Under the pieces are notes generated by a model that saw only the letters and a program-made list of their open reading frames with translations, searched no databases and was not told where the DNA came from. A stretch of 33,494 bases of DNA, from contig JBGPAV010000001.1 of NCBI GenBank assembly GCA_041480925.1, forward strand, positions 1 through 33,494, in the 5' to 3' direction. Of the stretch, positions 7,653 through 26,538 are shown in pieces; the stretch's first letter is position 1, and every line of letters begins with the position of its first letter. The stretch comes from Candidatus Bathyarchaeia archaeon. GTDB taxonomy: Archaea; Thermoproteota; Bathyarchaeia; Bathyarchaeales; Bathycorpusculaceae. Position numbers and translations under genes: made by a program.

Positions 7653-8187
7653 GCTGTATGACGCTTGGATGCGCGAACTTCAGAATCCAGAATTGGAAAA
7701 ACTTCCTTCTGACTTCTATTCCAATGCTGCAAAATACTTGAAGAAGTTGAAAGAAGAGGGAAGAATGCTTGACAAACGAACTGTAAAAGCGAGACTACTC
7801 CGAATTGAAGGACAGAACGTAAAGCGCATGCTTCATGAACTGATTAAAACACGATACAAGAAGTTGCTGAGAAAAACGTCAGAAGGATACAAGATCCCGG
7901 ATGATACTTTGGCGGCTGAAGAAGTAAAGCTCCTCTCTGGTTTCTCGCCGCTGATCGAATCATATCAGGCTTTTGCCAAAGGCCTGTTGCAAGGGCAACT
8001 TTTGCAGATTGATGCCAAATGTGAGCAAAAAAACGCTGTGTTGCGCTTTCTGAAGGATGTCCCTGCCATTGTTGGCTCAGACATGAAGCCATATGGGCCC
8101 TTCAAGGTTGAAGATGTTGCTTCAGTGCCTATTGAAAATGCCAAGATCTTAGTCAAACAAAGTTTAGCTGAGAAAGTTGAAGGTTAG
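7642..8187 (+). CDS. gins51: GINS subunit Gins51 (Gins15 type: A domain then B domain)
   Basis: N-terminal LPSDFY...helical A domain, followed by the C-terminal small beta B domain (VLRFLKDVPAIVG..YGPF). It is translationally coupled to priS, as in Sulfolobus. Confidence 0.7.
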   Translation: MYNELYDAWMRELQNPELEKLPSDFYSNAAKYLKKLKEEGRMLDKRTVKARLLRIEGQNVKRMLHELIKTRYKKLLRKTSEGYKIPDDTLAAEEVKLLSGFSPLIESYQAFAKGLLQGQLLQIDAKCEQKNAVLRFLKDVPAIVGSDMKPYGPFKVEDVASVPIENAKILVKQSLAEKVEG

Positions 8188-9237: not shown

Positions 9238-9436
9238 TCAGTAGCCTCTGTTTGCTCTTGTTTTGCCGGGTGTGTTTCTCCTAATTCATGTTGCCGTAGT
9301 ATTTATTGATAGCAGTTGCTTGTTTCAGCTCTGCGAATGGATTCTTGTAACGCTTAGATTCGGTAGATGAACTTTGGCAAGCGAAAAAGTATAAGAACGT
9401 GTGTGTTTTCTTTATGGAAAGCTGGTAGTGTCAGAA

Positions 9437-9712
9437 GTGAACGTTCCGAAAGAAGTCACAACCTATTGTCCTAAATGCAAGAAACATCAGATTCACGCAG
9501 TCTCACTTTATAAAGCAGGAAAACGGAGAGCTTTGGCTAAAGGCGAACGTCACCATGAAAGGGAAAAGCGCGGCTATGGTGGTCAGAAGTACGCTCTCCA
9601 AAGAGAATTCTCTAAAACAACAAAGAAGCAGACTCTGAAACTGAAATGCAAAACCTGTGGTTATATGCGACACAAGGATGGTATGAGACTAAGAAAACTG
9701 GAAATAGCCTAG
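9437..9712 (+). CDS. rpl44e: 50S ribosomal protein L44e (eL42)
   Basis: VNVPKEVTTYCPKCKKH..YKAGK..GYGGQ..LKLKCKTCG. I place the start at GTG 9437, not at the track's 9401. Confidence 0.9.
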   Translation: MNVPKEVTTYCPKCKKHQIHAVSLYKAGKRRALAKGERHHEREKRGYGGQKYALQREFSKTTKKQTLKLKCKTCGYMRHKDGMRLRKLEIA

Positions 9713-9734
9713 AATGGATAAAAGAGTTGAGATT

Positions 9735-9932
9735 ATGTCTGAATGGGAAGAACTTATACCGAGACCAAAAAGTAGTTTCGTGCGCGTGAAATGCCTGAAA
9801 TGTGGCAATGAACAGGTAGTTTTCAGCCATGCCTCCAACAAAGTAAACTGTAACGTCTGCGGAATTGAACTGGCTGAACCTTCAGGCGGAAAGGCCAAAA
9901 TCAAGGGCGAAGTAGTGGCTGTTTTTGAATAG
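9735..9932 (+). CDS. rps27e: 30S ribosomal protein S27e (eS27)
   Basis: FVRVKCLKCGNEQVVFSHASNKVNCNVCG zinc ribbon. The ATG at 9735 is the likely start. Confidence 0.9.
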   Translation: MSEWEELIPRPKSSFVRVKCLKCGNEQVVFSHASNKVNCNVCGIELAEPSGGKAKIKGEVVAVFE

Positions 9933-9934
9933 GG

Positions 9935-12772: not shown

Positions 12773-13003
12773 TCAGTTATCACTTTGAACACTCAGTATT
12801 GAAAGAGTTCGTTTTTAACGCTTCTCCGGAATACTGAATCCTTTTGCTTGGATATGATTCTGAATATTGCTGCTAGGTTTGGACTTTTGATCGACTATTC
12901 GAATCAAAATTGCCAAATTGCTTCTCTCCGTGTGACATACAAAGCACAATATTCGTCGACTCCATATCATTTTTCAAAAAACAGCGCAATTGGAGATGAA
13001 AAC

Positions 13004-13564
13004 ATGAAGCTAGCAAGGAACAGGAAAGCGTTGAGCACAGTAGTAACCACACTGATAATCCTCGTTGTCTCTGTACTACTTGCGACAGTTGTGACGTTCT
13101 ATGCGATCAACGTAACAACGACAAGAGTGCAGGAAGAGTCTCTGTTCTTGACTAAACAGCACGTTTGGTACAATACGTCAGGTTCTTGGGCTCAAGCCGC
13201 ATTAGTGATTGTGAACACTGGCGGAAGAGACGCAGTCATAGACAAGCTTTCAGTCCGAGGACAAGAATGCTCTTGGAGTAATGTCTACTTCTGGAGAACA
13301 AATGGCGTCGTCGTGACAGACGACTTGCAGGTAACGGCAACCGAGATCAGTGGAGCAACCTTCGACATAACAGTTCAGGGATCTGCACGAACTTTCAACC
13401 AGTCTACATCAGACATAACGCTAAAGTCAGGTTGGACAATAGTCATCTATGCGATGAATCCTGGCAGTATCTCACTGAACGACGTTGGATTGACAGTCAG
13501 TATAACCGCCTTCACCGCGAATGCGCAATACCACAAAGAAACAAATGTTGAGGCGGCGCAATAG
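13004..13564 (+). CDS. Archaeal type IV pilin-like protein (class III signal peptide)
   Basis: MKLARNRKA/LSTVVTTLIILVVSVLLATVV is a prepilin-type N-terminus. GGAG lies 9 nt upstream of ATG 13004. The track's 12848 start adds an implausible leader. Confidence 0.65.
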   Translation: MKLARNRKALSTVVTTLIILVVSVLLATVVTFYAINVTTTRVQEESLFLTKQHVWYNTSGSWAQAALVIVNTGGRDAVIDKLSVRGQECSWSNVYFWRTNGVVVTDDLQVTATEISGATFDITVQGSARTFNQSTSDITLKSGWTIVIYAMNPGSISLNDVGLTVSITAFTANAQYHKETNVEAAQ

Positions 13565-13602: not shown

Positions 13603-15648
13603 TCACGTTTTCTTCAGGTATCCCTCTCTTGGTTCGTAGATAGTTCCTTCGCGGAGCAATTGTCCAATGAGCCGTTCGGCTTCGCCTCTTGAAATCTTGT
13701 ACCTCTCATCTAGCTCGTTCAGCAGGGTTGTCTTCTCTACGATTCCTGTCTCTCTTTCCAGTTCCATAAGCGTTGAAAGAATTGTCTGCAGCCTGTCTCT
13801 AACGCTCTTTGGCTTCCCAGTCATTATGATGTCGATATCCATCTTGTATGAGGACAAGTCGATCCCGACTTCTTCAAGCGATCTTTTCATGATCGCAATG
13901 GCTGCTTCTGCGTCCTCAGCTTTAACCTCTTTTCTGAGTGCTGAGCGAGCGTGCGCTTCAGCTACTCGAACTAGCGATTCGAGTTGGCGTGCAGTTATGG
14001 CAACCGGCGATCCTTCAGACTCGCTTGCTGATCGCATTGCGAGATAGAAGTCATTGAGCCGTTGTACTGCTTCGGGGGTCAAAGTGGGTCGTACTCCCTT
14101 AGCGTAAGTTATGTACTTCCTGAGGAGGTCAGGCGATATTGGAGGTTCAATGGGGCTCAATCCTTTTCTATGTAATTCAAGGATATGTGCCGACATTTTT
14201 CCATCTGATTCCTTGTTCGGTACATCTCTCAAGACGAAGATCAAGTCAAATCTTGACAGTATTGTTACAGGCAGAGAGATGTTTTCCGCAACTGTGCGAT
14301 GCGATTCATATCTTCCGAGAGACGGGTTTGAGGCAGCAAGTATTGCTGTTCTGGCGTTTAGCGTAGCAACGATTCCGCCTTTGGCTATTGAGACGGTGTG
14401 CTGTTCCATGGCTTCGTGAATTGCAACTCTGTCTTCAGGTCGCATCTTATCCATTTCGTCGATGCATGCGATTCCTTTGTCAGCGAGTACTAATGCTCCA
14501 GCCTCGAGATTCATTCCTCCACCTTTGTCTCTTATGACGGCCGCTGTCAGGCCTGCGGCAGTCGTGCCACGTCCTGAAGTGTACAGTCCGCGCGGCGCGA
14601 TTCTTGACACGTATTGCAGAAGTTGAGATTTTGCGGTTCCTGGATCTCCAACTAAGAGAGCGTTTATTTCTCCTCTGATTGTTATGTCTGGAAGGCTTTT
14701 TCCCACGCCGCCAAAAAGAAGGTACATTATTGCTTCTTTAATGTGCTCGTATCCGTAGATCGAGGGGGCGATGGATGCCACTATCTTCCTGTGTATCCAG
14801 GGGTCTTTTGCCAGTTCAAGGATTTTTTCTTCTTCTTCGGGTGTTGGGAGTGCTGTTTCGGGTTCCTTGTCTAGCACCTCGATTGAGTTGACGTCCAGGT
14901 AAAGCATGAATGTACGGAGTTTGCCGACGCCGCCCGGGCCAGCCGTCGAGAAAGCACGCACTATTCCAACTATCGAAATGTGGTCGCCAGGCCTCGCTAC
15001 GTCCACTACTTCCGTTCCAATAAGTTTGGCGTTTAGTGTTCGTGGAAGCTGTCCAGGCGGAAGGTCTTCTGGTCGCTCCTGTATCCTTAGGTCTTGGGAA
15101 TCTACGAATGTGGATTCTTCTTGGATGAAGTCGAATGGTCCTTTTGCAGCGCATGATGGGTTGCTGCAAGCGAATGGTGCCTTGACAAACTGACCTGTCT
15201 GGTTTACAGGGGTCATCTCGCCGCAACGTTTGCATTTGAACGCTGCCTGCATCACCATCGGGCGGACCGGTGTTGAGCGGACAACAATTCCTTCTACCAT
15301 GACAAGTTTTCCAATGTGATTAGAGCCGAGTTTCCTAAGCTGCGCAGCTTCTAGCAGCTTTACGATTCTAACTGATAGCGTCTGCGCTTCGAGTTTCTCG
15401 GCGTATTCAGGGTCTTCTATTCGTAGTTGATCATATGCTGCGTTGTTTGCATGTTTCAGATATTCACTTTGTCTTTCCAGCAGTGTTTCAGCGAGTTTTT
15501 GGTCAAAAACTAGGAGATCCTCAAAGTCGATTATTAATGATGTCTTGCCTGCTACAGCCATCTGGGCTATTCTTTGGCGATACTTTTCCGTCTTCAGAAA
15601 TTCTTGGAACTGTTCTTGCGGGTCAACTGTTTCCAGTTCTTCTGTCAT
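13603..15648 (-). CDS. mcm: Replicative helicase MCM
   Basis: Zn motif CKRCGE..CSNPSC, Walker A GDPGTAKSQLL, Walker B CIDEMDKM and Arg finger SRFDLIF. Confidence 0.95.
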   Translation of the reverse strand: MTEELETVDPQEQFQEFLKTEKYRQRIAQMAVAGKTSLIIDFEDLLVFDQKLAETLLERQSEYLKHANNAAYDQLRIEDPEYAEKLEAQTLSVRIVKLLEAAQLRKLGSNHIGKLVMVEGIVVRSTPVRPMVMQAAFKCKRCGEMTPVNQTGQFVKAPFACSNPSCAAKGPFDFIQEESTFVDSQDLRIQERPEDLPPGQLPRTLNAKLIGTEVVDVARPGDHISIVGIVRAFSTAGPGGVGKLRTFMLYLDVNSIEVLDKEPETALPTPEEEEKILELAKDPWIHRKIVASIAPSIYGYEHIKEAIMYLLFGGVGKSLPDITIRGEINALLVGDPGTAKSQLLQYVSRIAPRGLYTSGRGTTAAGLTAAVIRDKGGGMNLEAGALVLADKGIACIDEMDKMRPEDRVAIHEAMEQHTVSIAKGGIVATLNARTAILAASNPSLGRYESHRTVAENISLPVTILSRFDLIFVLRDVPNKESDGKMSAHILELHRKGLSPIEPPISPDLLRKYITYAKGVRPTLTPEAVQRLNDFYLAMRSASESEGSPVAITARQLESLVRVAEAHARSALRKEVKAEDAEAAIAIMKRSLEEVGIDLSSYKMDIDIIMTGKPKSVRDRLQTILSTLMELERETGIVEKTTLLNELDERYKISRGEAERLIGQLLREGTIYEPREGYLKKT

Positions 15649-16214
15649 TCTTCAGTCTCCTCGTATTCCAGTATTTGCATCCGCCAATCGCTTATCACTG
15701 AATGGAGTTGGTCGTAGAGATATCTTTCTTCCTTCGTGAAGTTTTTGAGAGTGTGCTCTGTTTGAGCTGGAGCAGAGGCGATTGAAACGATTTTCCTCAA
15801 CCTAGAGTTCACAATATCTCTGATTAGCTGTCTAGCTTTCTCGCATTCCAGCATCCGCTCAGGAGCTCTTGCGGAATCTCTCCTTAAACTGGCTAGGCAT
15901 CGCCTCATTTTTGGATAAAAATCATCAGGCAGTCTCGACATCTGCCCGGCTGTCTGAACCCGTTCTGTCCATTGAACTTTATTGAGCTTTGCAGTGTTAA
16001 GGTTTTCATCCTCGCGGAAATGGACGATTCCTGACTTTTCAAGTTCCTGAGCTACCCAGTACTGAGTTTCATATTCGTTTCCTTCTTCAAGAGGGCCTAT
16101 GGTCAATCCTGCAAGCTTGATCTCAGGACAATTCCTGTTAGCAACAATCTTTACAGGTGAATGTTCAAAGTTGAAATCTAAATGTGCGATTCTTTTGGAG
16201 ACTGTTTTGGGCAC
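15645..16214 (-). CDS. gins23: GINS subunit Gins23 (B domain then A domain)
   Basis: N-terminal small beta domain (IKLAGLTIGPLEEGNEY..WVAQELEKSGIV), then an A domain with LPDDFYPK and RLRKIVSIA. There is a 4-nt ATGA overlap with mcm. Confidence 0.7.
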   Translation of the reverse strand: MPKTVSKRIAHLDFNFEHSPVKIVANRNCPEIKLAGLTIGPLEEGNEYETQYWVAQELEKSGIVHFREDENLNTAKLNKVQWTERVQTAGQMSRLPDDFYPKMRRCLASLRRDSARAPERMLECEKARQLIRDIVNSRLRKIVSIASAPAQTEHTLKNFTKEERYLYDQLHSVISDWRMQILEYEETEE

Positions 16215-16365: not shown

Positions 16366-17628
16366 TTATGGCCACAGCCCTAGCGTTATTATGGCGTCAG
16401 CTACTCTTCCAACGCCCAGCATCAGTGCCGCTGTTCTCGTGTCGCATTCTTCTTTCTTGGATACCTTGTAGACATCATTGAAGGCTCTGACCATCTTGCT
16501 TTCCAGTTTTCGGTTTACCTCTTGCGCTGTCCAGTGTTCTCGTGTCAGGTTTTGAACCCACTCGAAGTAGCTTGTCGTGACTCCGCCTGCGTTGGCTAGA
16601 ATGTCTGGTATGAGAACTGTGCCCTTTTCGTGGAGGATTTTGTCTGCTTCTGGTGTGGTTGGTCCATTTGCGCCTTCTGCGACTATCTTTGCCTTGATCT
16701 TATCTGCATTGGCCTTGGTGATTTGGTTTTCCAATGCTGCAGGAATAAGAATGTCACATTTTGTTTCGAGCACGTCTTCATTTGTGATGTGTTCGCATCC
16801 TTTTTCACACTTTTTGTAATCAACCACAGAGCCTGTTTTGGATTTGTGTTCTTGTACATCGTAGGGGTTCAGGCCTTTTGAGTTGTACATTCCGCCCATT
16901 GAATCGCTTACTGCCACGATCTTGGCTCCCATGTCGTGTGCTATTTTGGCTGCGTTCATGCCTACGTTTCCGTATCCCTGGACCGCCACTGTTGCTCCCT
17001 TAAGCTTTAAATTCAAATGCTTGGCTGCTTCTCTCGCGCAAACCACGACGCCTAGCGAGGTCGCTTGCTCCCTCCCTTCTGAACCGCCGATACTGATGGG
17101 TTTTCCAGTAACGCATTCTGGAACACTGTAGCCAGTTATTTGGCTGTAAGTGTCCATTATCCAGGCCATTGTCTGAGCGTCCGTGTACACGTCAGGTGCC
17201 GGCACATCGCGGTGTGGTCCGATGAAGTCGTAGAGAAGGCTCGTATATCGTCGTGTCAGTCTTTCAAGTTCGCCTTTTGACATTTGCTTCGGATTACAGG
17301 TGATTCCGCCTTTTGCACCTCCGTACGGAATGTCCACGACTGCACATTTCCACGTCATCCACATTGACAGCGCTGTGACTTCGTCCAGTGTGACATTTGG
17401 ATGGTAACGTATTCCTCCTTTGTACGGTCCTCTTGCATCCCAATGCTGCACTCGACATCCAGTGAAAACATCAGTCTTCCCGTTGTCCATTTTTACCGCG
17501 ACAGAAACGATAAGTGACCTCTTAGGATGAGCCAGCAATTCATGCATGCTGGGGTCAAGTCCCAGTTTTTTAGAAGCAATTTTTAGCTGTTCCAAAGCGA
17601 CTGTTAAGGCTGTATGTTCTTTTCCCAT
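16366..17628 (-). CDS. gdhA: Glutamate dehydrogenase (about 420 aa, hexameric class)
   Basis: KGGIRYHP, GGAKGG (catalytic Lys region) and VAVQGYGNVG dinucleotide fold. I prefer ATG 17628, which has AGGAGG 6-7 nt upstream, over the track's 17646. Confidence 0.95.
   Translation of the reverse strand: MGKEHTALTVALEQLKIASKKLGLDPSMHELLAHPKRSLIVSVAVKMDNGKTDVFTGCRVQHWDARGPYKGGIRYHPNVTLDEVTALSMWMTWKCAVVDIPYGGAKGGITCNPKQMSKGELERLTRRYTSLLYDFIGPHRDVPAPDVYTDAQTMAWIMDTYSQITGYSVPECVTGKPISIGGSEGREQATSLGVVVCAREAAKHLNLKLKGATVAVQGYGNVGMNAAKIAHDMGAKIVAVSDSMGGMYNSKGLNPYDVQEHKSKTGSVVDYKKCEKGCEHITNEDVLETKCDILIPAALENQITKANADKIKAKIVAEGANGPTTPEADKILHEKGTVLIPDILANAGGVTTSYFEWVQNLTREHWTAQEVNRKLESKMVRAFNDVYKVSKKEECDTRTAALMLGVGRVADAIITLGLWP
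16642..16716. repeat. 75-nt tract nearly identical (74/75, inverted) to 21741-21815 in the paralogous gdh
   Basis: My hand reverse-complement alignment found a single C/T mismatch. The tract encodes KANADKIKAKIVAEGANGPTTPEAD in both genes. Confidence 0.9.
17153..17220. repeat. 68-nt tract nearly identical (67/68, inverted) to 21249-21316 in the paralogous gdh
   Basis: My hand reverse-complement alignment found a single G/A mismatch. The tract encodes GPHRDVPAPDVYTDAQTMAWIMD in both genes. Confidence 0.9.
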
Positions 17629-17718
17629 AAGATTTCCTCCTTTCATCGTAGTTTATCTGCTTGGCTGGCTGTTAAATTTAAGGATTACTTAAGAAAGTGA
17701 AAGAAAAAAAGGATGGAG

Positions 17719-19326
17719 TTAGTCAAGTATTCTCTCGATGGCATCCTTTTCTACTTCGTCTGCCATCGGTATACCCGTGACTCTTGCTGCGGTTTCATTC
17801 AAGCTCATCAAATCATTTCTGCTGATGAGGTCCAGCTTCCATCTTCTGCTACCTGCTAGCAGCTGTTTTAGGCCAACACCTATGCGATCCGTCAGGTACG
17901 TGTGGACTGCTATGGCTTCCCATGGTATTTCTTTGAAGCGTTCGCCGTACTTTGCTTTCAGCTCTGGAGTAGCAATGAAGAACTTTTCAGGTGTAGAGCC
18001 AAATCTGTCAGCGAAAGTTTTAGGCAATTTGCCTTCTTCAGCCAATTGCTTGAAGTAGCTTCCCTTGAATGCTGCTGTTATCGGTGAGCGTCCCATCAGG
18101 ACTGCCTTGACAAAAGGTCCGTTGCCAAAGTTGCTCAGCGCGATGGACTTGTAGATTTGGGTTTCGTTGATGAAGCCTCCAGCCATGATTAGGTCAGGAA
18201 CGTATCTGCCCTTCTTCTTTAGCAGTTGTGCACATCTTAGAACTATGGCTTGCAGATAGACTGTTGGAATGCTCATTTCGTCCATCATTGGCACTGGGCT
18301 CATGCCTGTTCCGCCTCCTGCTCCGTCGAAGTATACTGCGTCGATTTTCGCTTCTGACGCCATCTTCATTGTGTACGCACAGGCTACGGGTCTGTATGCG
18401 CCAGTTTTGAGCGTTACATGCTTTGCGCCTTGTTTTCTCAGCCATTCTATGTCTTCTACGAAGCTTTTCTGCTTCGGTATGCCTACCCTGCTGTGCCTTT
18501 CGAAGGTTTTGAAGACTCCTTCTTTGAAGGCTTGCTGTATTACCGGGTCTTCTGGATCTGGAATCACTATGTAGCCTCTTTTCTTCAGCATAATAGCTTT
18601 CTCAAGGTCTCTTACTCGGACTTCGCCGCCTATGGCCTTTGCGCCTTGTCCCCACTTTCTTTCTATGACATTCACTTCCAGTTTCGAGATTGCGTAGACG
18701 TCAACTCCTAGCCTTTGGTCTTCGACGTTTGTTTGCACGGCTATTTCTCCGTATTTTCCGTCCCAGAACTTTCGGAATAAGTCTACTCTTCGCTTCAGTT
18801 CTTTCGAGTAGGTGACTTTGCCATTTGTTATCTGTGCTTCTGGATCCATGCCGCAGACGTTTTCGCCAACTATCACTGATACTCCTGAGAGAGCTGAGCC
18901 TATGGCTAGGCCTTCCCAGTTTAGTCTTGCGACGTCGGTTGAGCCGAAGGCACCGCATAGTACTGGCACTTTTAAAGGTACGCCTCCGACTTTGGTTTCT
19001 GTGCTTGCATTCGGGAAGGTGGCTACGTCAGAATTCTCCTCTATGCCTAGAACCTCGAATAGGCCTGCTTGAATGTTGAAGTGGGACCAGTCTAGTCCAA
19101 AGTCTTTGAGGGCTCCTGCTGTGCTGTAGCCAAATTGGGCTGGTTCTGGGTAGAGGGCTTCTCTTCCTCTGAAGGCAGATAGGCTGATTTCGCATAGGAC
19201 CGGACAGTCTCGGATGCATATGGGGCACATTCCGCTCGTTGGGCTTGTGTCTTTTACTCTTGTTGTTGTTCCACAAGTTGATTTTCCGTTCAAATAGGCA
19301 CTGTTTCTATGTACACGTTCACTCAT
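17719..19326 (-). CDS. Glutamate synthase FMN-binding-domain protein (GltB domain 2-like, stand-alone) with an N-terminal Cys cluster
   Basis: DGAGGGTGMSP (FMN-domain signature), TIM-barrel-like length, and an N-terminal CPICIRDCPVLC (CxxCxxxCxxxC). GGAGAGG lies upstream of the ATG. Confidence 0.8.
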   Translation of the reverse strand: MSERVHRNSAYLNGKSTCGTTTRVKDTSPTSGMCPICIRDCPVLCEISLSAFRGREALYPEPAQFGYSTAGALKDFGLDWSHFNIQAGLFEVLGIEENSDVATFPNASTETKVGGVPLKVPVLCGAFGSTDVARLNWEGLAIGSALSGVSVIVGENVCGMDPEAQITNGKVTYSKELKRRVDLFRKFWDGKYGEIAVQTNVEDQRLGVDVYAISKLEVNVIERKWGQGAKAIGGEVRVRDLEKAIMLKKRGYIVIPDPEDPVIQQAFKEGVFKTFERHSRVGIPKQKSFVEDIEWLRKQGAKHVTLKTGAYRPVACAYTMKMASEAKIDAVYFDGAGGGTGMSPVPMMDEMSIPTVYLQAIVLRCAQLLKKKGRYVPDLIMAGGFINETQIYKSIALSNFGNGPFVKAVLMGRSPITAAFKGSYFKQLAEEGKLPKTFADRFGSTPEKFFIATPELKAKYGERFKEIPWEAIAVHTYLTDRIGVGLKQLLAGSRRWKLDLISRNDLMSLNETAARVTGIPMADEVEKDAIERILD

Positions 19327-19413
19327 TCTTTCCTCTCCTTTACATCCGCAAATTTTTAGAGGATAGGAGTAATCTACGTTAGAATTTAAATATTGCCTTA
19401 AAACCTCTCAAAA

Positions 19414-19433
19414 ATGAACATGTATGAACATGG
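19414..19433. promoter_or_regulatory. Tandem 10-nt repeat ATGAACATGT/ATGAACATGG (two TGAACAT heptads), upstream of the GltS-like gene
   Basis: It lies 88-107 nt upstream of ATG 19326 (minus strand), distal to an AATATTTAAAT TATA-like box at about 19383-19394. It shares the 12-mer ATGTATGAACAT with 20295-20306. Confidence 0.5.
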
Positions 19434-19448
19434 AAACTCTCGCAATCA

Positions 19449-20198
19449 TCAGTCTATTAGAATCCTGATCTTGGAGCCTTTCACAGTGTATTCGTGACGC
19501 TGGAAAGTTTTCGAGTCATAACGCCAGCCAGCCTCTTTGACTTCAATAAATCTCTTAGCTCCTTCTTTGGACAATTCGATAACTACCTGTGTGATATGTT
19601 CGATAAGAGCGCAGAACTCTTTAGGGTGGGCATTCTTTGCGAGCGTCCAACTGGCCAACGTGTTATAGGCATACAGTGCAGGGCAAACGTGAGCGAAGAA
19701 TCCTTTAACCGTCTCGCGTCCCCAAACCTGCTCCATCAATGACAAGCTGTTGAAAACAAGCCTCGTACCTGATGTTACGAATTCCCTTTCAACTCTTCCG
19801 AAGAATCTATGGAATTGTTCAGGGTCTTTTGAGCTCGGGACTTTTCTAATCCAAGATGGTGCCTTATCGTAGAAGTCACTGAATATAAGTTCACCTTGGC
19901 CAGAGGATTCAGAGAAACAGTCCAAAACAAGAAGCTTGCTTTCCCATCCTGATGGAAAAGTCTCGATCAAAGGTTTCAGCTGCAACATCAGGGCCTGTGG
20001 AGGATATAAGAAATCAAGATATATAACTTGGCTTCCTTCAACTATGCCTTGTTTGATGAAAGCATAAATGAATTCACACGCAAGTGTTCCAGACTCAATT
20101 TCCCATAAAACGTTTTCACCCAAGAAAAGGCCGCCGCCGAGAAGCTCATCCAACGTCTCTATTCCTGTTGACAGCATTTGATTTCCTTGTTTATTCAC
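19449..20198 (-). CDS. KaiC/RecA-fold protein lacking a Walker A P-loop (probable pseudo-ATPase)
   Basis: STGIETLDELLGGGL..G matches the KaiC/RadA-like N-terminus. The position of GxxGxGKT reads IESGTLAC. LLVLD (Walker B-like) is retained. Confidence 0.6.
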   Translation of the reverse strand: MNKQGNQMLSTGIETLDELLGGGLFLGENVLWEIESGTLACEFIYAFIKQGIVEGSQVIYLDFLYPPQALMLQLKPLIETFPSGWESKLLVLDCFSESSGQGELIFSDFYDKAPSWIRKVPSSKDPEQFHRFFGRVEREFVTSGTRLVFNSLSLMEQVWGRETVKGFFAHVCPALYAYNTLASWTLAKNAHPKEFCALIEHITQVVIELSKEGAKRFIEVKEAGWRYDSKTFQRHEYTVKGSKIRILID

Positions 20199-20260
20199 CT
20201 TGGGTCTCCGTCTTTTGAATGATATCTAGGCGATAAAAACGTTTAGGTGTGTCGAGGGCT

Positions 20261-20306
20261 GTTCAATGGTGTACATAATGTACATAACGTTTCTATGTAT
20301 GAACAT
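20261..20306. promoter_or_regulatory. Composite element GTTCAA-n3-TGTACAT-n2-TGTACAT-n14-TGAACAT in the divergent KaiC-like/gdh2 intergenic region
   Basis: It has the same architecture and the same 9-nt heptad phasing as 22151-22186. The outer GTTCA...TGAAC arms are inverted. Confidence 0.55.
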
Positions 20307-20345
20307 TGCCTTATGTATCTTGCACAAAATGGAGGAATGAAGTAA

Positions 20346-22133
20346 ATGCTAACTTCAGTAGAGTTGTCAGGAAGAGAACTTGGAATGATAAAACTGATGG
20401 CTGACTTTTTCGTTGAAAAACCCGAGTTAACCGCAAAAATCGAGAGCTACACAACAGCCTACTATGCCCTCATGACTACATATTCAGAGAACTTTGGAAT
20501 TCCGACAGAAGATGCATGGAAGACGTTCGAGGAGCTTGAAAAGAAACTCGATGGGGCAAAAGACATACGTGTCGAGGCGCCGTCACCTATCAAGAAATGG
20601 TACTCGTTGTCTACGGAAGAAATAAACATGATCCGCGTGCTGATTGACTACTTCTCAGAGAATCCCAAAATGACTCCCACAAGCTCGTTCATTGCCAACA
20701 GGTCAGAATCTATCATCGAAGCCTACAAATGGTTTTTCGGAACAACTGAAGGTAATGGCGAATACGCAAGGGAAAGCTTCAACAACCTAATGGAAAAGAT
20801 ACAAGCTGCAACATCAATCAAACTCGACACATTAGCTCCAGTCATGGCCACGCCAAACCCTTACGAAGCTGTCCTGCAGCTTCTGCAGCTCGCCGCAAAG
20901 AAGCTGAACCTAGACCCAGGATTGCATGAAATGCTGAAGCGCCCAATGAGAACTCTCATCGTCAACATCCCAATAACGATGGACGATGGAAGCATACAAG
21001 TCTTCACTGGCTACCGTGTACAATACAATGACTTGCTAGGTCCAACGAAGGGCGGCATAAGATATCACCCAGAACTGACGCTGGACGAAGTCATAGCTTT
21101 GTCCGCTTGGATGACCTTCAAGACTGCGGTAACAGGTCTGCCTCTTGGAGGCGGCAAGGGCGGAATACGCTGCAATCCGAAAGAGATGTCTCAAAATGAG
21201 CTAGAAAGACTGACCAGAGGCTATGCCCGTGCTATGGTGCGCTTCATAGGACCACACCGCGATGTGCCGGCACCTGACGTGTACACAGACGCTCAGACAA
21301 TGGCCTGGATAATGGATGAATACAGCGAAATGGTAGGATACAATGTTTTCGGAGTAGTCACTGGAAAACCAGTGCATGTCGGCGGTTCACTGGGCAGGAA
21401 TGAGGCAACGTCCAGAGGCGTGATGTACACTGTTATCGAGGCTGCAGAGCATCTCGGCATAAAGCTGAAAGGTTCTACAGTGGCAGTGCAGGGCTACGGC
21501 AACGTTGGATACCATGCTGCTCGGCTGCTCAATGAAATCGGATGCAAGATCATAGCAGTCTCAGATTCAAAAGGCGGAATCTACAATCCGAAAGGATTTG
21601 ATCCAATGAAAGCCTTAGAACACAAGAACCGAACTGGCTCTGTCGTTGACTTTGAAGACTGCAAGAACATAACGAATGAAGAACTGCTAGAAGTGGAATG
21701 CGACATTCTCGTTCCATCTGCTCTAGAGAGCCAAATCATCAAGGCCAATGCAGATAAGATCAAGGCAAAGATAGTTGCAGAAGGCGCAAATGGACCAACC
21801 ACACCAGAAGCAGACGAAATACTGTTCAAAAATGGAATCTTCGTCATCCCAGATATCCTAGCAAACTCTGGCGGTGTGATTGTCAGCTACTTCGAGCAGG
21901 TGCAGAACCAGATGAACTACTACTGGCCCGAAGACGAAGTGCGGGAGAAACTGAAAAACACGATAACCAAAGCATTCAAGGATGTTCTGGCAATATCTCA
22001 GCAGTACAACGTGAACATGCGTGTGGCTGCCTACATGAGCGCAGTCAAGAGAGTCACTGATGCCATGCTTACTCGCAAGCACAAAACAGTCAGCCCAATC
22101 CCCGAACCAAAGGCAACAGTTCAAAGCAAATGA
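20346..22133 (+). CDS. Glutamate dehydrogenase paralog with a 166-aa N-terminal extension (two tandem RHH-like repeats)
   Basis: The GDH core carries KGGIRYHP, GGGKGG and VAVQGYGNVG. The frame is continuous from ATG 20346 (GGAGG at 20331-20335). An in-frame ATG at 20844 sits at the start of the GDH core. Confidence 0.9.
   Translation: MLTSVELSGRELGMIKLMADFFVEKPELTAKIESYTTAYYALMTTYSENFGIPTEDAWKTFEELEKKLDGAKDIRVEAPSPIKKWYSLSTEEINMIRVLIDYFSENPKMTPTSSFIANRSESIIEAYKWFFGTTEGNGEYARESFNNLMEKIQAATSIKLDTLAPVMATPNPYEAVLQLLQLAAKKLNLDPGLHEMLKRPMRTLIVNIPITMDDGSIQVFTGYRVQYNDLLGPTKGGIRYHPELTLDEVIALSAWMTFKTAVTGLPLGGGKGGIRCNPKEMSQNELERLTRGYARAMVRFIGPHRDVPAPDVYTDAQTMAWIMDEYSEMVGYNVFGVVTGKPVHVGGSLGRNEATSRGVMYTVIEAAEHLGIKLKGSTVAVQGYGNVGYHAARLLNEIGCKIIAVSDSKGGIYNPKGFDPMKALEHKNRTGSVVDFEDCKNITNEELLEVECDILVPSALESQIIKANADKIKAKIVAEGANGPTTPEADEILFKNGIFVIPDILANSGGVIVSYFEQVQNQMNYYWPEDEVREKLKNTITKAFKDVLAISQQYNVNMRVAAYMSAVKRVTDAMLTRKHKTVSPIPEPKATVQSK
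21249..21316. repeat. Partner of 17153-17220 (67/68 identity, inverted)
   Basis: Same evidence as for 17153-17220. Confidence 0.9.
21741..21815. repeat. Partner of 16642-16716 (74/75 identity, inverted)
   Basis: Same evidence as for 16642-16716. Confidence 0.9.
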
Positions 22134-22139
22134 CTTCCC

Positions 22140-22145
22140 TTTTTT
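22140..22145 (+). terminator. T6 tract 7 nt after the gdh2 stop, a candidate terminator
   Basis: TGA 22131-22133 is followed by CTTCCCTTTTTTC. This places the next gene under its own promoter. Confidence 0.4.
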
Positions 22146-22150
22146 CTATT

Positions 22151-22186
22151 GTTCAACGTGTACATTGTGTACATGTCTGTGAACAT
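22151..22186. promoter_or_regulatory. Composite element GTTCAA-n3-TGTACAT-n2-TGTACAT-n5-TGAACAT upstream of the RHH-protein gene
   Basis: The heptads start at 22159, 22168 and 22180. The second TGTACAT ends 54 nt before ATG 22228, compared with 61 nt for the gdh2 copy. Confidence 0.55.
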
Positions 22187-22227
22187 GTTTAAGAGACACC
22201 ATTTTAACAGACTGTCTAGGGAAAAGA

Positions 22228-24162
22228 ATGTCTGTTCATCTCCATACTACTCTGAGAAAGAAAACAGATGACATGATTGAGGAATTGGCGAAGACTTACG
22301 GAACCAAGAGCCGAGTCATTGAACAAGCAATCGAGACGCTACTCAGAGTTGAAAGAGTCGGCTCCTGCGAGGACTGCGCAATAAAAGCAAAGATGAATGA
22401 ACAAGTGAACCTAAGAGAAGCTCTGGACTTAACGTCAATTGGAAGGAAAATGGCTGACAGTCTTCTGGAAGTGGCGGTCGGAGACAAGACAGTTCAGGAT
22501 TTTATTGCCGAGGAAAGGACGGAGGCAAAGAACACTATTGAGGTTCTAAAAGGTTCAATGGCGTGGAAAGCCCCCTCCAACTTCAAAGAGTTCATGACGA
22601 TTTTCGAAGAATTGATGAGTCTGACTCGGCTTTTCGAAATCGCTTCTCACAGTGAGATGGAAAACACGATAATCCTGAGACCGCGCGTCTTCAAACGCCT
22701 GCCTGAGCTTGTTGCCTTTCAATTGGCGGTCATACTTGAAGGTCTGCAGATATCTTTCGACATAAGAATAATGGGAGAAGATGTCGCTATCAAGTTAACA
22801 AGACAAGAACTCTACGCCATGAGGAAGAAGGAGTTTGGCGAAATATTCAATGAACAAATCGAGAGAAGACTTTCTGATTCTACCCCGGGGCTTTTCAGGG
22901 ATACTTTGATCCTGGTCGGACCGGCCTTCATGAACTGGGCCGAAAAACATCTTGAGGAACCTATAACCGATCTAAGCTCGTTCATAGAAGATGTGAAAAC
23001 CGTTCTTGGCAAGGACGAGCTTCCATCCCAGCCTAGAGAATTTGTGAAAAGCCTGTTATCTGCGTTTATAAAAATGAACTGGTTTAAGCAAGCAAAGATA
23101 CTGCAAGAAGTTGATGAGAAGACTCTGGATTTGTCTTTTCAAGCAACTATGCCTTCAGTCGCCAAACTTGCGATTCTAGTGTTGTCAGTCATATTTGCGA
23201 CCCGTGGTTGGAAAGTTGTGAAATTCTCCGCTGAACACACGTCAGTCAATCTTACGATCCAATTCGTCGGTTTGGAAGATCAAAGCTTGCTTGATCAGGT
23301 GGTTGAGCTTAGCCTCTATCAAACCGTAGGCAAGCAATTCCTAGACGTTATGCCAGTTCCAAGAGAAGTTTTCAACTCTTTTGCTTCCAAAGTCTACGAA
23401 ACTGATAAGGAGAGATTCTCTGAAATATACCGAAATATGGGCGTTGGGGTTGCCAGTGCCGTCCGCCTACTTGCAAGAAATGACCCGGGGAAAATCAAAA
23501 AGTTGTCTCAAACACTTATCCTCAAGAACCTAGGGTCTATGCAGCCTGATGCGGAGATCCGGTTTGTCGATGATGAACATTTTACCATAATTTTCAAGAA
23601 AATCGACTTTCTGGTTGTCAATAGCCAACGTACTTTCATCGAATCTCTGTTCAAAGAACTTGGATACGAAATCTCGACGACGGTTTTCCAGAACCTATTG
23701 AGCTTCAAGCTCAAACCATTGGAGAAACCGATTCTTGAACCTGTGCCCACAAAGAAGATAATGCAGAGCCTGATAGGCGAGATGTCTGCAAATTCCTGTG
23801 ATGAAGCTTTTGAATTGATAAAAGAGCAGCTTGATCAAATGTTTCCAGAAGATTATCCATGGACCTTAAAAGAGGTTGGCGATAGGCTCATCGAGATATA
23901 CCGCGAAATAGGGATAGAAGTTGAAATCGAGTATTTCGAAGGAGGCTTCACACTCAAGTACAGGACATGTCCGTACTACAAATTGGTTAAATCTGGACAG
24001 AAGACGTGGCTTTGTAATCTTCGCAAGAAGACGATAGATTACATCCTTTTGCGAGTTTCACATGGAAAGAAGGCAAAGATAAAGATCATCAAGTCCTTGC
24101 TCAAGAATGAACATCCTTGCGAATATGCCGTGTTCTTAACAGGGTTCTTGGAAGAGGAATAG
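22228..24162 (+). CDS. 644-aa protein of unknown function: N-terminal ribbon-helix-helix DNA-binding domain plus four V4R-like modules (the last is Cys-containing)
   Basis: VHLHTTLRKKTDDMIEELAKTYGTKSRVIEQAIETLL fits the beta-alpha-alpha RHH pattern (CopG/Arc-like). The C-terminal TCPYY..WLCN..HPCEY resembles V4R-type ligand-binding domains. The family assignment is tentative. Confidence 0.5.
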   Translation: MSVHLHTTLRKKTDDMIEELAKTYGTKSRVIEQAIETLLRVERVGSCEDCAIKAKMNEQVNLREALDLTSIGRKMADSLLEVAVGDKTVQDFIAEERTEAKNTIEVLKGSMAWKAPSNFKEFMTIFEELMSLTRLFEIASHSEMENTIILRPRVFKRLPELVAFQLAVILEGLQISFDIRIMGEDVAIKLTRQELYAMRKKEFGEIFNEQIERRLSDSTPGLFRDTLILVGPAFMNWAEKHLEEPITDLSSFIEDVKTVLGKDELPSQPREFVKSLLSAFIKMNWFKQAKILQEVDEKTLDLSFQATMPSVAKLAILVLSVIFATRGWKVVKFSAEHTSVNLTIQFVGLEDQSLLDQVVELSLYQTVGKQFLDVMPVPREVFNSFASKVYETDKERFSEIYRNMGVGVASAVRLLARNDPGKIKKLSQTLILKNLGSMQPDAEIRFVDDEHFTIIFKKIDFLVVNSQRTFIESLFKELGYEISTTVFQNLLSFKLKPLEKPILEPVPTKKIMQSLIGEMSANSCDEAFELIKEQLDQMFPEDYPWTLKEVGDRLIEIYREIGIEVEIEYFEGGFTLKYRTCPYYKLVKSGQKTWLCNLRKKTIDYILLRVSHGKKAKIKIIKSLLKNEHPCEYAVFLTGFLEEE

Positions 24163-24296: not shown

Positions 24297-25268
24297 TTGA
24301 GCTTTGAGATGTGGGCTGAGAAATATCGGCCGAAATCATTGGAGGCCATAGTTGACCAGAAAGAGATAGTTGATCGCCTCAAGAGCTTTGTGAAAGCAAG
24401 GAACGTGCCGCACTGTATCCTTGCTGGTCCACCTGGAACAGGAAAGACCACCGCAGCACTCTGCTTGTCAAGGGATCTGTACGGTGATGCCTACAGGGAA
24501 CACACTATGGAGTTAAACGCAAGCGACGAAAGAGGCATTGATGTTGTACGAGAAACTGTGAAAACCTTCGCCCGAGTGAAGTCTATTGGTGAAATCCCAT
24601 TCAAGATAATGATTTTGGATGAAGCGGATAACATGACTTCAGACGCTCAGCAAGCTTTGAGGAGGACGATGGAGCGGTATACTGGGACATGCAGGTTCAT
24701 AATGTGCGCAAATTACAGCGGAAAAATTATAGAGCCGATTCAGTCAAGATGCGCGCCTTTCAGATTCTCATACTTACCCAGAAAAGAACAAGACGCGTAT
24801 CTAAATCAGATAGCCGAGAAAGAGAAAATCAAACTGACAGTCGACGGTCTAGACGCCATCTTTGAAGTCTGTGGCGGAGATCTAAGAAAGGCTATAAATA
24901 CTCTGCAGGCAGCCACATCTTTAGAGAAGCCCGTAGATGCCAAGGTTGTTTACTCAATTGCGGGAAAAGCAAGTCCTGCTGACGTGCAAAAAATGCTGAA
25001 AACCGCCATGGATGGCAACTTCATTGAATCCAGAAAACAGCTACGTGACATGATTCAAAAATATGGCGTTGCCGGTAGCGACATAATACGTCAGATTCAT
25101 TCGGAAATCTTCAGAACCGAGATTCCTGAACCTTGGCGCATAAAACTAGCTGGCATTATAGGCGAAGTCGACTACAGACTTGTCGAAGGTGCAGACGAAG
25201 AGGTTCAGCTAAGCGCGTTGTTAGCGAGACTTGTTGAAGCTGGCTCTGAATTGAAGAAGGCACACTAG
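24297..25268 (+). CDS. rfcS: Replication factor C small subunit
   Basis: WAEKYRP, Walker A GPPGTGKTT, ILDEADNM and the SRC motif (QSRCAPFRF). The start is TTG 24297 (10 nt after GAGGAG) or ATG 24309. Confidence 0.95.
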   Translation: MSFEMWAEKYRPKSLEAIVDQKEIVDRLKSFVKARNVPHCILAGPPGTGKTTAALCLSRDLYGDAYREHTMELNASDERGIDVVRETVKTFARVKSIGEIPFKIMILDEADNMTSDAQQALRRTMERYTGTCRFIMCANYSGKIIEPIQSRCAPFRFSYLPRKEQDAYLNQIAEKEKIKLTVDGLDAIFEVCGGDLRKAINTLQAATSLEKPVDAKVVYSIAGKASPADVQKMLKTAMDGNFIESRKQLRDMIQKYGVAGSDIIRQIHSEIFRTEIPEPWRIKLAGIIGEVDYRLVEGADEEVQLSALLARLVEAGSELKKAH

Positions 25269-25278
25269 GTGCAGACTT

Positions 25279-26538
25279 TTGTACGCTTCTTGGGTCATCA
25301 AACACAAACCAAGATCTTTAAACCAGATCATCGGAAATAAAGAAACCATCCAGAAACTTGCCGATTGGGTCAAAGCTTGGAGCAAAGGCGTACCTCCTAA
25401 GAGAGCTGTTTTTTTATATGGGCCTCCTGGAATTGGCAAGTCCATAACTGTTGAGGCTTTAGCCAATGACCTAGGAATGGAGCTTGTGGAGAAAAATGCA
25501 AGCGACTATAGAACTGAAGATGCCGTGAATCGCTTCGCTGGACTGGCCTCGCAGTTTGGTTCACTGTTTGGCGGAAGAAGAATAGTTTTGCTGGATGAGC
25601 TTGACGGATTAATTGGAACGGCAGACAAGGGCGGAGTGAAAGCAATAACAGAAGTTGTCAAAGTCGCACAATGTCCAATCATCCTTATCGCAAACAGTGC
25701 TTACGAACCCAAATTCACGAACTTGCGCATTTACTGTCTTTTGCTAGAGTTCAAGAAGCCGCCTATTGGAGAAGTCGCGAAACTGTTGAAAGGAATATGT
25801 GACGTTGAAGGCATTCAAGCCGATGAAAACGCGTTGAAGTTTATTGCGCAACGCTCTGAAGGTGACGTGCGATCTGCGGTGAATGACCTTCAGGCTTTGG
25901 CTCAAGGCAAAAAGAAGCTAGGTTATGAGGATGTTTCTTGGCTCGGATACAGGGATAGGCAGGACACGATCTTCAACGTTCTGAAGCTGATCATCTATGG
26001 CAAGACTTGCGCCAGCGCGAAACAGGCAGTTAACATGGCTGACATTGACATCGACATGCTTTTTGAGTGGATTTATGAGAACATTCCTGACCATTTCACT
26101 GATCCGCATGATTTGGCACAGGCAATGGACGCTCTTTCAACCGCGGACTTGTACAGAGGGAGAATACGTGCCACGCAAAACTGGAGTTTTACACGCTACG
26201 TCATTGACTACATGACTGCCGGCGTGGCTATGGCCCGCCAAAACTCCAAGACATCTGGCTGGATACCATTCAAGTTCCCAAGTCGCATTCAAATGCTGTC
26301 TCGATCTAGAAGCGAAAGAGCAATGCAGTCGAGTATTGGACAAAAAATCAAAAGAAGATGTCATGTTTCTGCTGTCAGAGCCTCAAAGGAAATTCTGCCA
26401 TACCTAAAGATAATCTTCAAAAACAACGCAGAAATAGCCGCTGGACTCGCTAAGTGGCTTGATCTGGATCAGGAAATGATAACTTACATTGTCGGCAGCG
26501 ACGAGAAGGCAGAGGCTATAATGAAACTGTTGAGTTGA
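25279..26538 (+). CDS. rfcL: Replication factor C large subunit
   Basis: W.IKHKPRSL, Walker A YGPPGIGKS, LLDELD and GDVRSAVNDLQ. The start is TTG, 10 nt after the rfcS stop. Confidence 0.85.
   Translation: MYASWVIKHKPRSLNQIIGNKETIQKLADWVKAWSKGVPPKRAVFLYGPPGIGKSITVEALANDLGMELVEKNASDYRTEDAVNRFAGLASQFGSLFGGRRIVLLDELDGLIGTADKGGVKAITEVVKVAQCPIILIANSAYEPKFTNLRIYCLLLEFKKPPIGEVAKLLKGICDVEGIQADENALKFIAQRSEGDVRSAVNDLQALAQGKKKLGYEDVSWLGYRDRQDTIFNVLKLIIYGKTCASAKQAVNMADIDIDMLFEWIYENIPDHFTDPHDLAQAMDALSTADLYRGRIRATQNWSFTRYVIDYMTAGVAMARQNSKTSGWIPFKFPSRIQMLSRSRSERAMQSSIGQKIKRRCHVSAVRASKEILPYLKIIFKNNAEIAAGLAKWLDLDQEMITYIVGSDEKAEAIMKLLS

Follow-up and report, generated by a model that had tools for sequence, protein, structure and literature searches.

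A candidate TGWACA-box regulon around a glutamate dehydrogenase paralogue in Bathyarchaeia and its probable ribbon-helix-helix-type regulator

A 33,494-nt stretch of DNA from Candidatus Bathyarchaeia archaeon (GenBank assembly GCA_041480925.1, contig JBGPAV010000001.1, positions 1–33,494; this whole stretch is termed the window) contains a block of five consecutive genes: two glutamate dehydrogenase (GDH) genes, gdh1 and gdh2, a gene for a flavoprotein related to glutamate synthase (the GltS-related gene), a gene for a KaiC-like protein, and a gene for a 644 amino acid (aa) protein. The block is probably a small self-contained regulon of one Bathyarchaeia lineage, run by an autoregulated one-component transcription factor, the 644-aa protein. 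Its obligate unit consists of the KaiC-like gene, gdh2 and the 644-aa gene; the flavoprotein gene, with gdh1, is a frequent but separable companion.

The gdh1 gene (positions 16366–17646, minus strand) encodes a GDH of canonical length as judged by Pfam and NCBIfam. It is followed by the GltS-related gene (17719–19326, minus strand), which encodes a flavin mononucleotide (FMN)-type protein with a partial match to Pfam PF01645, and by the KaiC-like gene (19449–20198, minus strand), which has a GTG start and Pfam matches to KaiC and PAXNEB. On the plus strand are gdh2 (20346–22133), encoding a GDH paralogue with an extension of 166 aa at its N-terminus (20346–20843), and the 644-aa gene (22228–24162). 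Positions 22228–22353 of the latter encode a terminus resembling a ribbon-helix-helix (RHH), positions 22366–22377 a CxxC motif, and positions ~23803–24126 a MetOD1/V4R-type Cys3His domain. The same five open reading frames had been listed in an initial annotation of the sequence and all are found in the window. The gdh1 coordinates need a qualification: the open reading frame is present, but its longest form reaches position 17646, and the start formerly given at 17628 is the second in-frame ATG. This shorter form is favoured by gene calls in relatives.

Related loci were collected by a scan with the 644-aa protein, using one genome per GTDB species. This yielded 67 loci, all in metagenome-assembled genomes (MAGs) of Bathyarchaeia except two (L058 and L063), which are in MAGs labelled Promethearchaeota and Thorarchaeota and show 51% and 46% identity of the 644-aa protein; as far as their contigs extend, these two also carry the KaiC-like gene, gdh2 and the 644-aa gene. 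The order KaiC-like gene (minus), gdh2 with its extension (plus), 644-aa gene (plus) is unbroken in every locus with enough flanking sequence. It is kept also in the most divergent loci L051, L052, L054 and L058, where the 644-aa protein is as little as 51% identical, and it survives rearrangement of the flanking MCM, GINS and RFC replication genes (L027, L048 and L049). In a reciprocal scan of metagenome contigs, with the KaiC-like protein as the query and with only loci with room counted, 68 of 68 have gdh2 with its extension next to the KaiC-like gene, and 51 of 51 have the 644-aa gene. The corresponding numbers are 57 of 63 for the GltS-related gene and 44 of 52 for gdh1.

The GltS-related gene and gdh1 usually lie beside the KaiC-like gene in the genome loci. 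They are absent within 7 kb in L023, L025, L033, L051, L052 and L058, and in L056 both have relocated as a pair to the opposite side of the 644-aa gene. L054 and L060 have the GltS-related gene in inverted orientation, and gdh1 is missing in L027 and L028. Because the KaiC-like gene, gdh2 and the 644-aa gene are always linked and the other two are separable, this trio is taken to be the obligate unit. The five-gene module proposed initially is thus retained in part: the three-gene core is co-localised in genome and metagenome loci of relatives, as had been predicted, but the GltS-related gene is facultative and gdh1 carries no boxes.

No recurring partner was found among the neighbours of the trio in loci that lack the GltS-related gene. 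In divergent loci the neighbouring genes include those for an aldehyde:ferredoxin oxidoreductase, an ADP-forming acyl-CoA synthetase, a PyrK/NfnA-like subunit and succinate dehydrogenase/fumarate reductase (SDH/FRD); they are not conserved and have no boxes, and they hint at a catabolic (peptide-fermentation) rather than an assimilatory role. In L058 the trio is flanked by the PyrK/NfnA-like subunit, the aldehyde:ferredoxin oxidoreductase and a fusion of ADP-forming acyl-CoA synthetase with GNAT. In L074 the GltS-related gene is located ~3.3 kb downstream of the 644-aa homologue with its box pair kept, and is followed by SDH/FRD subunit genes.

The heptad TGWACAT is present in 25 copies in the window, compared with 9.1 ± 3.1 in shuffled sequences, and none of 100 shuffles reached 25. 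Three intergenic regions of the block (19327–19448, 20199–20345 and 22134–22227; 363 bp in total) display 2, 4 and 3 matches, respectively. The initial annotation had counted eight heptads here, which is a fair count, as one pair among the nine matches is a single palindrome read on both strands. It had also listed single intergenic copies at 3221–3227 and 32930–32936, and the 3,902 bp of intergenic sequence outside the three regions contain no others. The repeated unit, however, is the hexamer core TGWACA (TGTACA, or TGAACA/TGTTCA) rather than the heptad, and the three regions contain 2, 4 and 4 such boxes. The boxes are spaced 9–10 or ~21 bp from centre to centre, and because of this spacing they would lie on one face of the helix. 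The region upstream of gdh1 (17647–17718) has no TGWACA box, and gdh1 is probably outside the regulon.

Conservation of the boxes was analyzed by aligning 42–59 distinct orthologous regions taken from ~60 species-level genomes of Bathyarchaeia. In these alignments the columns of the boxes and of the neighbouring TATA-like elements are the best conserved, at 95% or more, and the flanking sequences have diverged. The expectation that the repeats would be conserved at orthologous promoters is thereby upheld. Paired boxes are concentrated at the cluster to the near exclusion of other DNA: 147 of 148 in the genome loci (1.16 Mb) and 201 of 202 in the metagenome loci (0.73 Mb), i.e. 348 of 350 in both sets combined (1.9 Mb). 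The paired-box scan showed no further regulon members within ±6–10 kb of ~148 clusters.

The intergenic region between the KaiC-like gene and gdh2 has the consensus TGTWCA-n4-TGTACA-n3-TGKACA-TAAnGTTTCTATAnT-TGAACA. In the window, boxes 1–3 (TGTTCA n4 TGTACA n3 TGTACA) are at 20260–20284, between the predicted core promoters of the two genes and ~20–45 bp upstream of the divergent KaiC-like promoter. The fourth box, TGAACA (20300–20305), is directly 3′ of the TATA-like element of gdh2, TTTCTATGTA; the two together span 20290–20305 on the plus strand, and conservation is 95% or higher in the columns of both GTTTCTAT and TGAACA. Box 4 would lie between the TATA-like element and the predicted transcription start. 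On the other side of the region is the conserved GTTAAAAAYGTTTAGG element (20232–20247, minus strand; columns at least 80–95% conserved in 56 sequences), a putative transcription factor B recognition element (BRE)/TATA element that probably serves as core promoter for the KaiC-like gene.

Upstream of the 644-aa gene, four boxes (TGTTCA, TGTACA, TGTACA, TGAACA) are found at 22150–22185, the last of which abuts a putative TATA box, TTTAAGAG (22188–22195, plus strand). The GTTTAA columns of this element are at least 80–95% conserved in 59 sequences, and the next columns vary. The consensus shows oligo-T after the gdh2 stop codon and then TGTACA-n14–16-TGAACA abutting TTTAAwAG. The oligo-T tract 3′ of the gdh2 stop codon in the window (22137–22145, plus strand) is likely an archaeal terminator, and T-runs are present at the same place in orthologues.

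The GltS-related gene has two TGAACA boxes (19415–19430, 10 bp apart centre to centre) ~20 bp upstream of a putative TATA box, ATATTTAAAT on the gene strand (19384–19393, minus strand), in which the TTTAAAT columns reach at least 95% conservation among 42 different upstream sequences. On the gene strand the consensus is TGTWCA-n4-TGTTCA, ~20 bp before the conserved TTTAAAT. The box pair is kept in 41 of 42 orthologous upstream regions, including those of relocated or inverted genes (L056, L060 and L074). The 5′ leader of this gene (19327–19383; gene strand ...TTTGCGGATGTAAAGGAG before the ATG) displays a conserved TTTGCAAAyGTAAAGG(T/A)G stretch. As its conservation goes beyond the needs of a Shine-Dalgarno sequence, the stretch could represent an additional regulatory element.

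Distant homologues of the 644-aa protein provide the main indication of what may bind the boxes. The full-length family forms one cluster, with a few distant relatives at 20–25% identity, in an exhaustive search of 1.84 billion cluster representatives. The distant homologues are encoded beside Cdc48, divergently from receiver/histidine-kinase genes, beside the gene for transcription factor B (TFB) or beside an aldehyde oxidoreductase gene, and no GDH gene is found in their neighbourhoods. Similar boxes are nevertheless present upstream of the homologue's own gene in five of six cases. L071 (protein P0122) has four TGAACA/TGTACA boxes directly upstream, 20–22 bp apart (P ~4e-6); three TGWACA boxes are directly upstream of the gene in L079 (P0150; P ~0.005) and two in L160 (P0123; P ~0.006). 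A variant, ATGTGCATA, precedes the gene in two copies in L072/L073 (P0127), with a further two in inverted orientation ahead of the next operon (4 copies versus 0.08 expected), and L078 has two copies directly upstream of the gene (P0134; P ~0.009). Because these GDH-free contexts carry similar boxes, the operator type appears to travel with the 644-aa family and not with GDH.

The variant boxes of L072 are at 4159–4186 and 6134–6162, the inverted pair being upstream of a downstream flavin adenine dinucleotide (FAD)/iron-sulfur oxidoreductase operon. Those of L078 are at 4913–4970 and 6482–6700, where TGTGCA-type boxes precede the TFB gene. The variant-box homologues of both loci are 493 aa long, are encoded divergently from a receiver gene and have the N-terminal strand RLHTTI in place of HLHTTI; this difference may represent co-variation of protein and box.

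Across the clade of orthologues, residues 1–50 of the 644-aa protein are near-identical throughout, parallel to the invariance of the boxes, and boxes are present upstream of the 644-aa gene itself in all orthologues. Together with the distant homologues, this parallel makes it quite probable that the 644-aa protein is the regulator of the TGWACA operator. The autoregulation suggested earlier is plausible for the same protein, given the boxes at its own gene in orthologues and distant homologues.

No Pfam, NCBIfam or PDB entry matches the complete 644-aa protein, and PDB searches by sequence and by profile were uninformative for it and for its N-terminus. Its closest relatives have Bathyarchaeia as source name, and related proteins are named Ca. 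Bathyarchaeales and Ca. Bathycorpusculaceae. Family members differ at the C-terminal end. Relatives of 493–519 aa cover residues 3–499 without the C-terminal domain, and relatives of ~530 aa have the first ~300 residues in common and a receiver domain at the end. Others adjoin receiver/histidine-kinase genes; like the receiver that takes the place of the C-terminus, this is in line with a sensory role of that end. The receiver-type protein P0146 (L077, 1–11593) is encoded among cheB, cheC, cheD and cheR together with a number of genes for Arf/Roc-type small GTPases, of which some carry receiver fusions; this gene content suggests an Asgard-like genome.

The N-terminus of the 644-aa protein is a probable RHH. 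It aligns with CopG by hhalign over 40 columns with a probability of 64–66% and E ~6e-5. The aligned pattern is a strand HLHTT(I/L), a helix, a G-T-K-S turn and a second helix; AlphaFold2 (AF2) places helices at residues 11–24 and 27–39. Across eight aligned sequences, the two receiver-type relatives among them, G25, E32 and P159 do not vary. A 29-sequence alignment from which these two are omitted shows G45-S46-C47 and C50 as invariant; C47 and C50 are the cysteines of the CxxC motif at residues 47–50.

Irrespective of any structure model, the last 145 residues match MetOD1 (PF18546) in 16 of 16 orthologues, with a best E-value of 1.7e-5 over profile positions 32–139 of 142. C581, C596, C631 and H629 are invariant in 61 sequences, i.e. 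the three-Cys cluster of the MetOD1/V4R superfamily is present. Relatives of MetOD1 are V4R, HNOB and ATC hydrolase, and the three-Cys cluster is common to MetOD1, V4R and ATC hydrolase (PMC5847659). The C-terminus thus appears to be a MetOD1/V4R-type Cys3His domain and is the only recognisable sensor module of the protein. Foldseek searches with the AF2 model (pLDDT 66) give matches of low significance, to H-NOX (3tf8 and others, probability 0.93–0.99), Bet3 (2j3w, 0.95–0.98) and the V4R domain of DmpR (6iy8, 0.63), all at E > 0.01 and with target-normalised TM-scores of 0.17–0.43. The middle ~450 aa are alpha/beta in the model and have no detectable relatives. Four alpha-beta-beta-alpha-beta-beta units seen in the model were considered as internal repeats, and this was rejected (hhalign between the four segments gives a probability of ≤3%).

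Several points weigh against this interpretation of the block and its regulator. There is no Pfam RHH match at E ≤ 10 and the best PDB RHH match, to ParD, is not significant (E 0.71), and for this reason the RHH is probable and not proven; the RHH start proposed in the initial annotation is supported by the CopG alignment and the invariant G25, but not by any significant Pfam or PDB match. The CopG comparison itself depends on a CopG sequence that did not come from a database. The copy in the window scores 16.8 bits with MetOD1, under the Pfam cut-off of 23.8; the AF2 model is mediocre (pLDDT 66, pTM 0.42) and gives no Foldseek match at E ≤ 1e-3. The GltS-related promoter of L054, alone among its orthologues, has lost its boxes, and the receiver-type homologue P0146 in L077 has no recognisable boxes. 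The assignment of the boxes to the 644-aa protein and the positions of TATA elements and transcription starts are read from sequence alone. The box scan spans ±6–10 kb per cluster, which leaves room for distant sites, a larger regulon or another cognate factor.

The products of the remaining genes are relevant to what is regulated. Both GDHs display Pfam ELFV_dehydrog_N and ELFV_dehydrog domains, and the catalytic GGxKGG and PAPDV motifs are intact in both and invariant in 23 GDH2 orthologues. The gdh1 product and the GDH2 core are 61% identical. Both are under the NCBIfam GdhA_Arch equivalog cut-off (552 bits for gdh1 and 607 bits for gdh2 versus 750). The two GDH paralogues, the second with a 166-aa N-terminal extension, are as described in the initial annotation.

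Two tandem copies of a ~80-aa domain make up the GDH2 extension (hhalign of repeat 1 against repeat 2: probability 97.7%, E 2e-12). The AF2 model (pLDDT 80, pTM 0.74) shows each unit as approximately a strand, three or four helices and a strand. A search of 5.8 billion proteins yielded 14 matches only, all of them fragments of the GDH2 protein. In a GC-richer lineage, represented by contigs of three samples (L074–L076), the extension has an open reading frame of its own, of 185 aa, ahead of a 381-aa GDH (L074, 3545–5312). The extension is thus an autonomous, separately encodable and lineage-specific domain. It has no PDB sequence match and no fold relative in the PDB (best Foldseek E 0.64, low-probability winged-helix regulators). 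By hhalign it was rejected as a relative of the regulator or of the KaiC-like protein, as no similarity was seen, and as an RHH (probability ≤3.7%). GDH2 is therefore not the second RHH-bearing protein that it had been thought to be.

The GltS-related protein is the most conserved of the block, with 79–95% identity across loci, and has an invariant N-terminal CPICIRDCPxxC motif. The match to PF01645 (37 bits) is partial and covers profile positions 188–296 of 369; there is no NCBIfam or PDB relative, and no match to solved GltS structures even by profile. Amidotransferase or GXGXG domains and a GltD partner were absent from the window open reading frames of at least 110 aa and from the called neighbours in relatives. 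Because the Pfam match is partial and a PDB relative is lacking, glutamate-synthase chemistry is not established for this protein. The earlier designation as an FMN-only GltS-like protein stands as far as the PF01645 match, but this covers only about a third of the profile.

The KaiC-like protein matches PF06745 over residues 10–247 (27.6 bits versus a cut-off of 26.6) and KaiC in the PDB (E ~1e-5). In the PDB alignments its SGTLACEF segment is aligned to KaiC SGTGKTLF. All 54 of 54 orthologues are without GK[ST] (the P-loop Lys-Thr) and have WE[IV]ES[GA]TFAREF in place of Walker A; the initial annotation had noted the lack of Walker A in the window copy. A Walker-B-like LVLDCFSE is retained. 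Because the P-loop Lys-Thr is absent in all orthologues, the protein is classed as an inactivated KaiC-like protein. In the databases the proteins of the block go by the names “glutamate synthase-related protein,” “KaiC/GvpD/RAD55 family RecA-like ATPase,” “Glu/Leu/Phe/Val family dehydrogenase” and “hypothetical protein.”

The proposed mechanism is as follows. The 644-aa protein would dimerise via its N-terminal RHH, and the dimer would recognise TGWACA hexamers cooperatively on one face of the DNA, 9–10 or ~21 bp apart. Affinity for DNA would be altered by a small ligand or by redox state, perceived by the large C-terminal part that includes the MetOD1/V4R-type Cys3His domain. Binding at its own promoter and that of gdh2 would most likely repress by blocking TATA-binding protein, TFB or RNA polymerase, because the boxes abut or follow the TATA elements of these two genes. 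Either activation or repression would be expected at the GltS-related gene, because its boxes are ~20 bp upstream of the TATA box. The gdh1 gene would not be controlled by the 644-aa regulator. The KaiC-like protein and the N-terminal domain of GDH2, which are always co-inherited and, by their boxes, predicted to be co-regulated, may together exert post-translational control over GDH2 or the regulator, although this is speculative. Glutamate or 2-oxoglutarate as the ligand is also speculative, and the sensing of glutamate, 2-oxoglutarate or nitrogen/carbon (N/C) balance is pure conjecture. The known V4R/MetOD1-type relatives bind aromatics or haem/nitric oxide, rather than 2-oxoglutarate.

The most radical alternative is that there is no functional unit, the adjacency of the genes being a consequence of the close kinship of the sampled genomes and the hexamers generic promoter features. 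All full-length relatives do fall into a single 50%-identity cluster, and the wider neighbourhood (MCM, GINS, RFC) is largely syntenic too. The trio however stays intact where flanks are rearranged (L027, L048, L049, L056, L023, L052 and L058), neither the other promoters in the 1.9 Mb of related loci nor the remainder of the window have paired boxes, and the intergenic flanks have diverged where the boxes have not. This alternative is strongly disfavoured and is considered highly improbable. Also unlikely, but to a much lesser degree, is that the boxes, as a genuine operator, are bound by a factor encoded elsewhere (e.g. of Lrp/AsnC, TrmB or MarR type), with the 644-aa protein as a sensor or scaffold that does not bind DNA and is itself a regulon member. 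RHH membership cannot be proved by Pfam or PDB sequence searches, the box scans reached only the DNA around each cluster, and some relatives have Lrp/AsnC-type genes directly beside it. In L002/L003 (12646–13899) genes for an Lrp/AsnC-type helix-turn-helix (HTH) protein and a stand-alone AsnC_trans_reg protein are inserted between the 644-aa gene and RFC, and in L001 the same pair is ~8 kb away. The statement in the initial annotation that no Lrp-type regulator is visible holds for the window but not for these relatives. Such genes are absent from most loci, and no other DNA-binding protein is consistently linked. The first 50 residues of the 644-aa protein are as invariant as the boxes, and the boxes of distant 644-aa homologues in unrelated, GDH-free neighbourhoods argue further for this protein as the binding factor.

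Two other alternatives accept the 644-aa protein as regulator and concern what is sensed. The regulator may respond to redox state or metal through its invariant cysteines, and not to glutamate or 2-oxoglutarate, so that the regulon would tune amino acid catabolism to electron-acceptor status and not to N/C balance; this is somewhat unlikely but a reasonable possibility. C47, C50, C581, C596, C631 and H629 are all invariant, a Cys cluster is conserved in V4R and MetOD1 relatives, and the regulated flavoprotein has its own invariant four-Cys motif. The oxidoreductase, acyl-CoA synthetase, PyrK/NfnA-like and SDH/FRD genes of divergent loci fit peptide fermentation, a lifestyle commonly proposed for Bathyarchaeia, but neighbours beyond the trio vary among genomes and are boxless, and the Cys cluster may be structural and not sensory in this superfamily. 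The other alternative, a trigger-enzyme variant, adds to the reading of an autoregulated 644-aa regulator and does not exclude it. Here GDH2 would be the sensor, and its duplicated domain with the KaiC-like adaptor would bind the 644-aa regulator according to substrate or cofactor state and so switch DNA binding. By analogy, Bacillus subtilis RocG controls GltC and thereby gltAB. Linkage of the three genes holds in all loci examined, the extension is autonomous and found nowhere else among the 5.8 billion proteins, one regulated target is a glutamate-synthase-related gene, and the KaiC-like protein cannot be a normal ATPase; inactivated KaiC domains recur in archaeal signalling proteins (PMC5847659). 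An interaction among the partners is purely hypothetical, however, and the extension has neither sequence similarity to the regulator or the KaiC-like protein nor structural relatives that point to a function. The variant is considered unlikely. Less likely still is its most specific form, an enzyme-coupled switch in which the tandem domain of GDH2 docks on a ring of the dead KaiC-like protein and reports glutamate/2-oxoglutarate flux to the RHH-MetOD1 regulator, which in turn adjusts expression of gdh2, of the KaiC-like and GltS-related genes and of itself. Such a switch would be an archaeal counterpart of trigger-enzyme control, assembled from components that lack characterised relatives.

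The unit does not appear to be a described system, as had been surmised; literature searches gave no description of it. NikR is a known case of an RHH fused to a C-terminal ligand-binding domain. The 644-aa protein shares with the RHH repressors NikR, MetJ, CopG, Arc and omega a probable short N-terminal strand-helix-helix, short repeated boxes one or two helical turns apart and, by inference, autoregulation with boxes overlapping core promoter elements. It differs from them in an effector part of ~600 aa versus 40–90 aa, mostly without a recognisable family, in the lack of an RHH Pfam match and in the archaeal TATA/BRE promoter context. Its C-terminal domain of ~110 aa with three Cys and a His is like the V4R/MetOD1/H-NOX sensors (the phenol sensors DmpR, MopR and PoxR; MetOD1 of methanogen response regulators), but is fused to a probable RHH and not to a receiver or AAA+/HTH. 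The Lokiarchaeum “Arc-type RHH-HisKA-REC” proteins (Galperin et al. 2018) resemble by their description P0146 and P0151, which have an RHH-like N-terminus, ~300 aa and a terminal receiver. The Bathyarchaeia 644-aa protein has no receiver and has extra domains that end in the MetOD1-like one.

Other parallels concern the enzymes. In B. subtilis RocG/GudB–GltC, GDH is likewise genetically coupled to a factor that controls a glutamate-synthase(-like) gene. In Bathyarchaeia, however, a contact of GDH and regulator is only hypothetical, the regulator is of probable RHH and not of LysR type, and the unit adds an inactive KaiC-like partner and a novel N-terminal GDH domain. PutA, which the initial annotation cited as a precedent, is similar as an RHH regulator tied to glutamate-linked metabolism, but no enzyme domain is detectable in the 644-aa protein, and the enzyme GDH2 is made as a polypeptide of its own, with an extension that is not RHH-like. 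The KaiC-like protein resembles the iKaiC domains of archaeal signalling (PMC5847659) in its KaiC-family RecA fold, degenerate P-loop and regulatory gene context. Unlike these, it stands alone and is obligately paired with a GDH paralogue; it is not fused to a receiver, HalOD1 or MEDS. The system is most likely a one-component regulator of probable RHH type with a V4R/MetOD1-type sensor and two uncharacterised companion modules.

The block is embedded in replication genes. The primase small subunit and GINS51 genes are at 6408–8187 and the MCM and GINS23-like genes at 13603–16214; on the other side of the five genes are those for the RFC small and large subunits (24297–26538). In L027, L048 and L049 the MCM/GINS and RFC genes swap sides, and the cluster still adjoins them. 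A 238-aa open reading frame at 12848–13564, without a Pfam match, is kept beside MCM in many relatives (49–79% identity), and in L002/L003 (1–1314) a glutamine synthetase gene is found just past MCM. A 697-bp stretch (9238–9934) lies between the longest open reading frames and is partly overlapped by a 126-aa minus-strand open reading frame; it has no tRNA or Rfam match, and no tRNA genes or Rfam families were found in the window as a whole.

Bathyarchaeia are among the most abundant archaea of anoxic sediments and soils. To our knowledge their metabolic regulation is almost unstudied, and we know of few regulators with a predicted operator or targets. The locus offers a concrete prediction, of one protein, a 6-bp box with defined spacing and four promoters. 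It also ties three uncharacterised modules to a central enzyme of amino acid and nitrogen metabolism, namely the regulator body of ~450 aa, the duplicated domain of GDH2 and the KaiC-like protein without Walker A. If the predicted binding is true, the 644-aa protein would represent a new family of archaeal transcription factors, with relatives in other archaea, some of them coupled to receiver domains, and it would provide a handle on the control of GDH in Bathyarchaeia.

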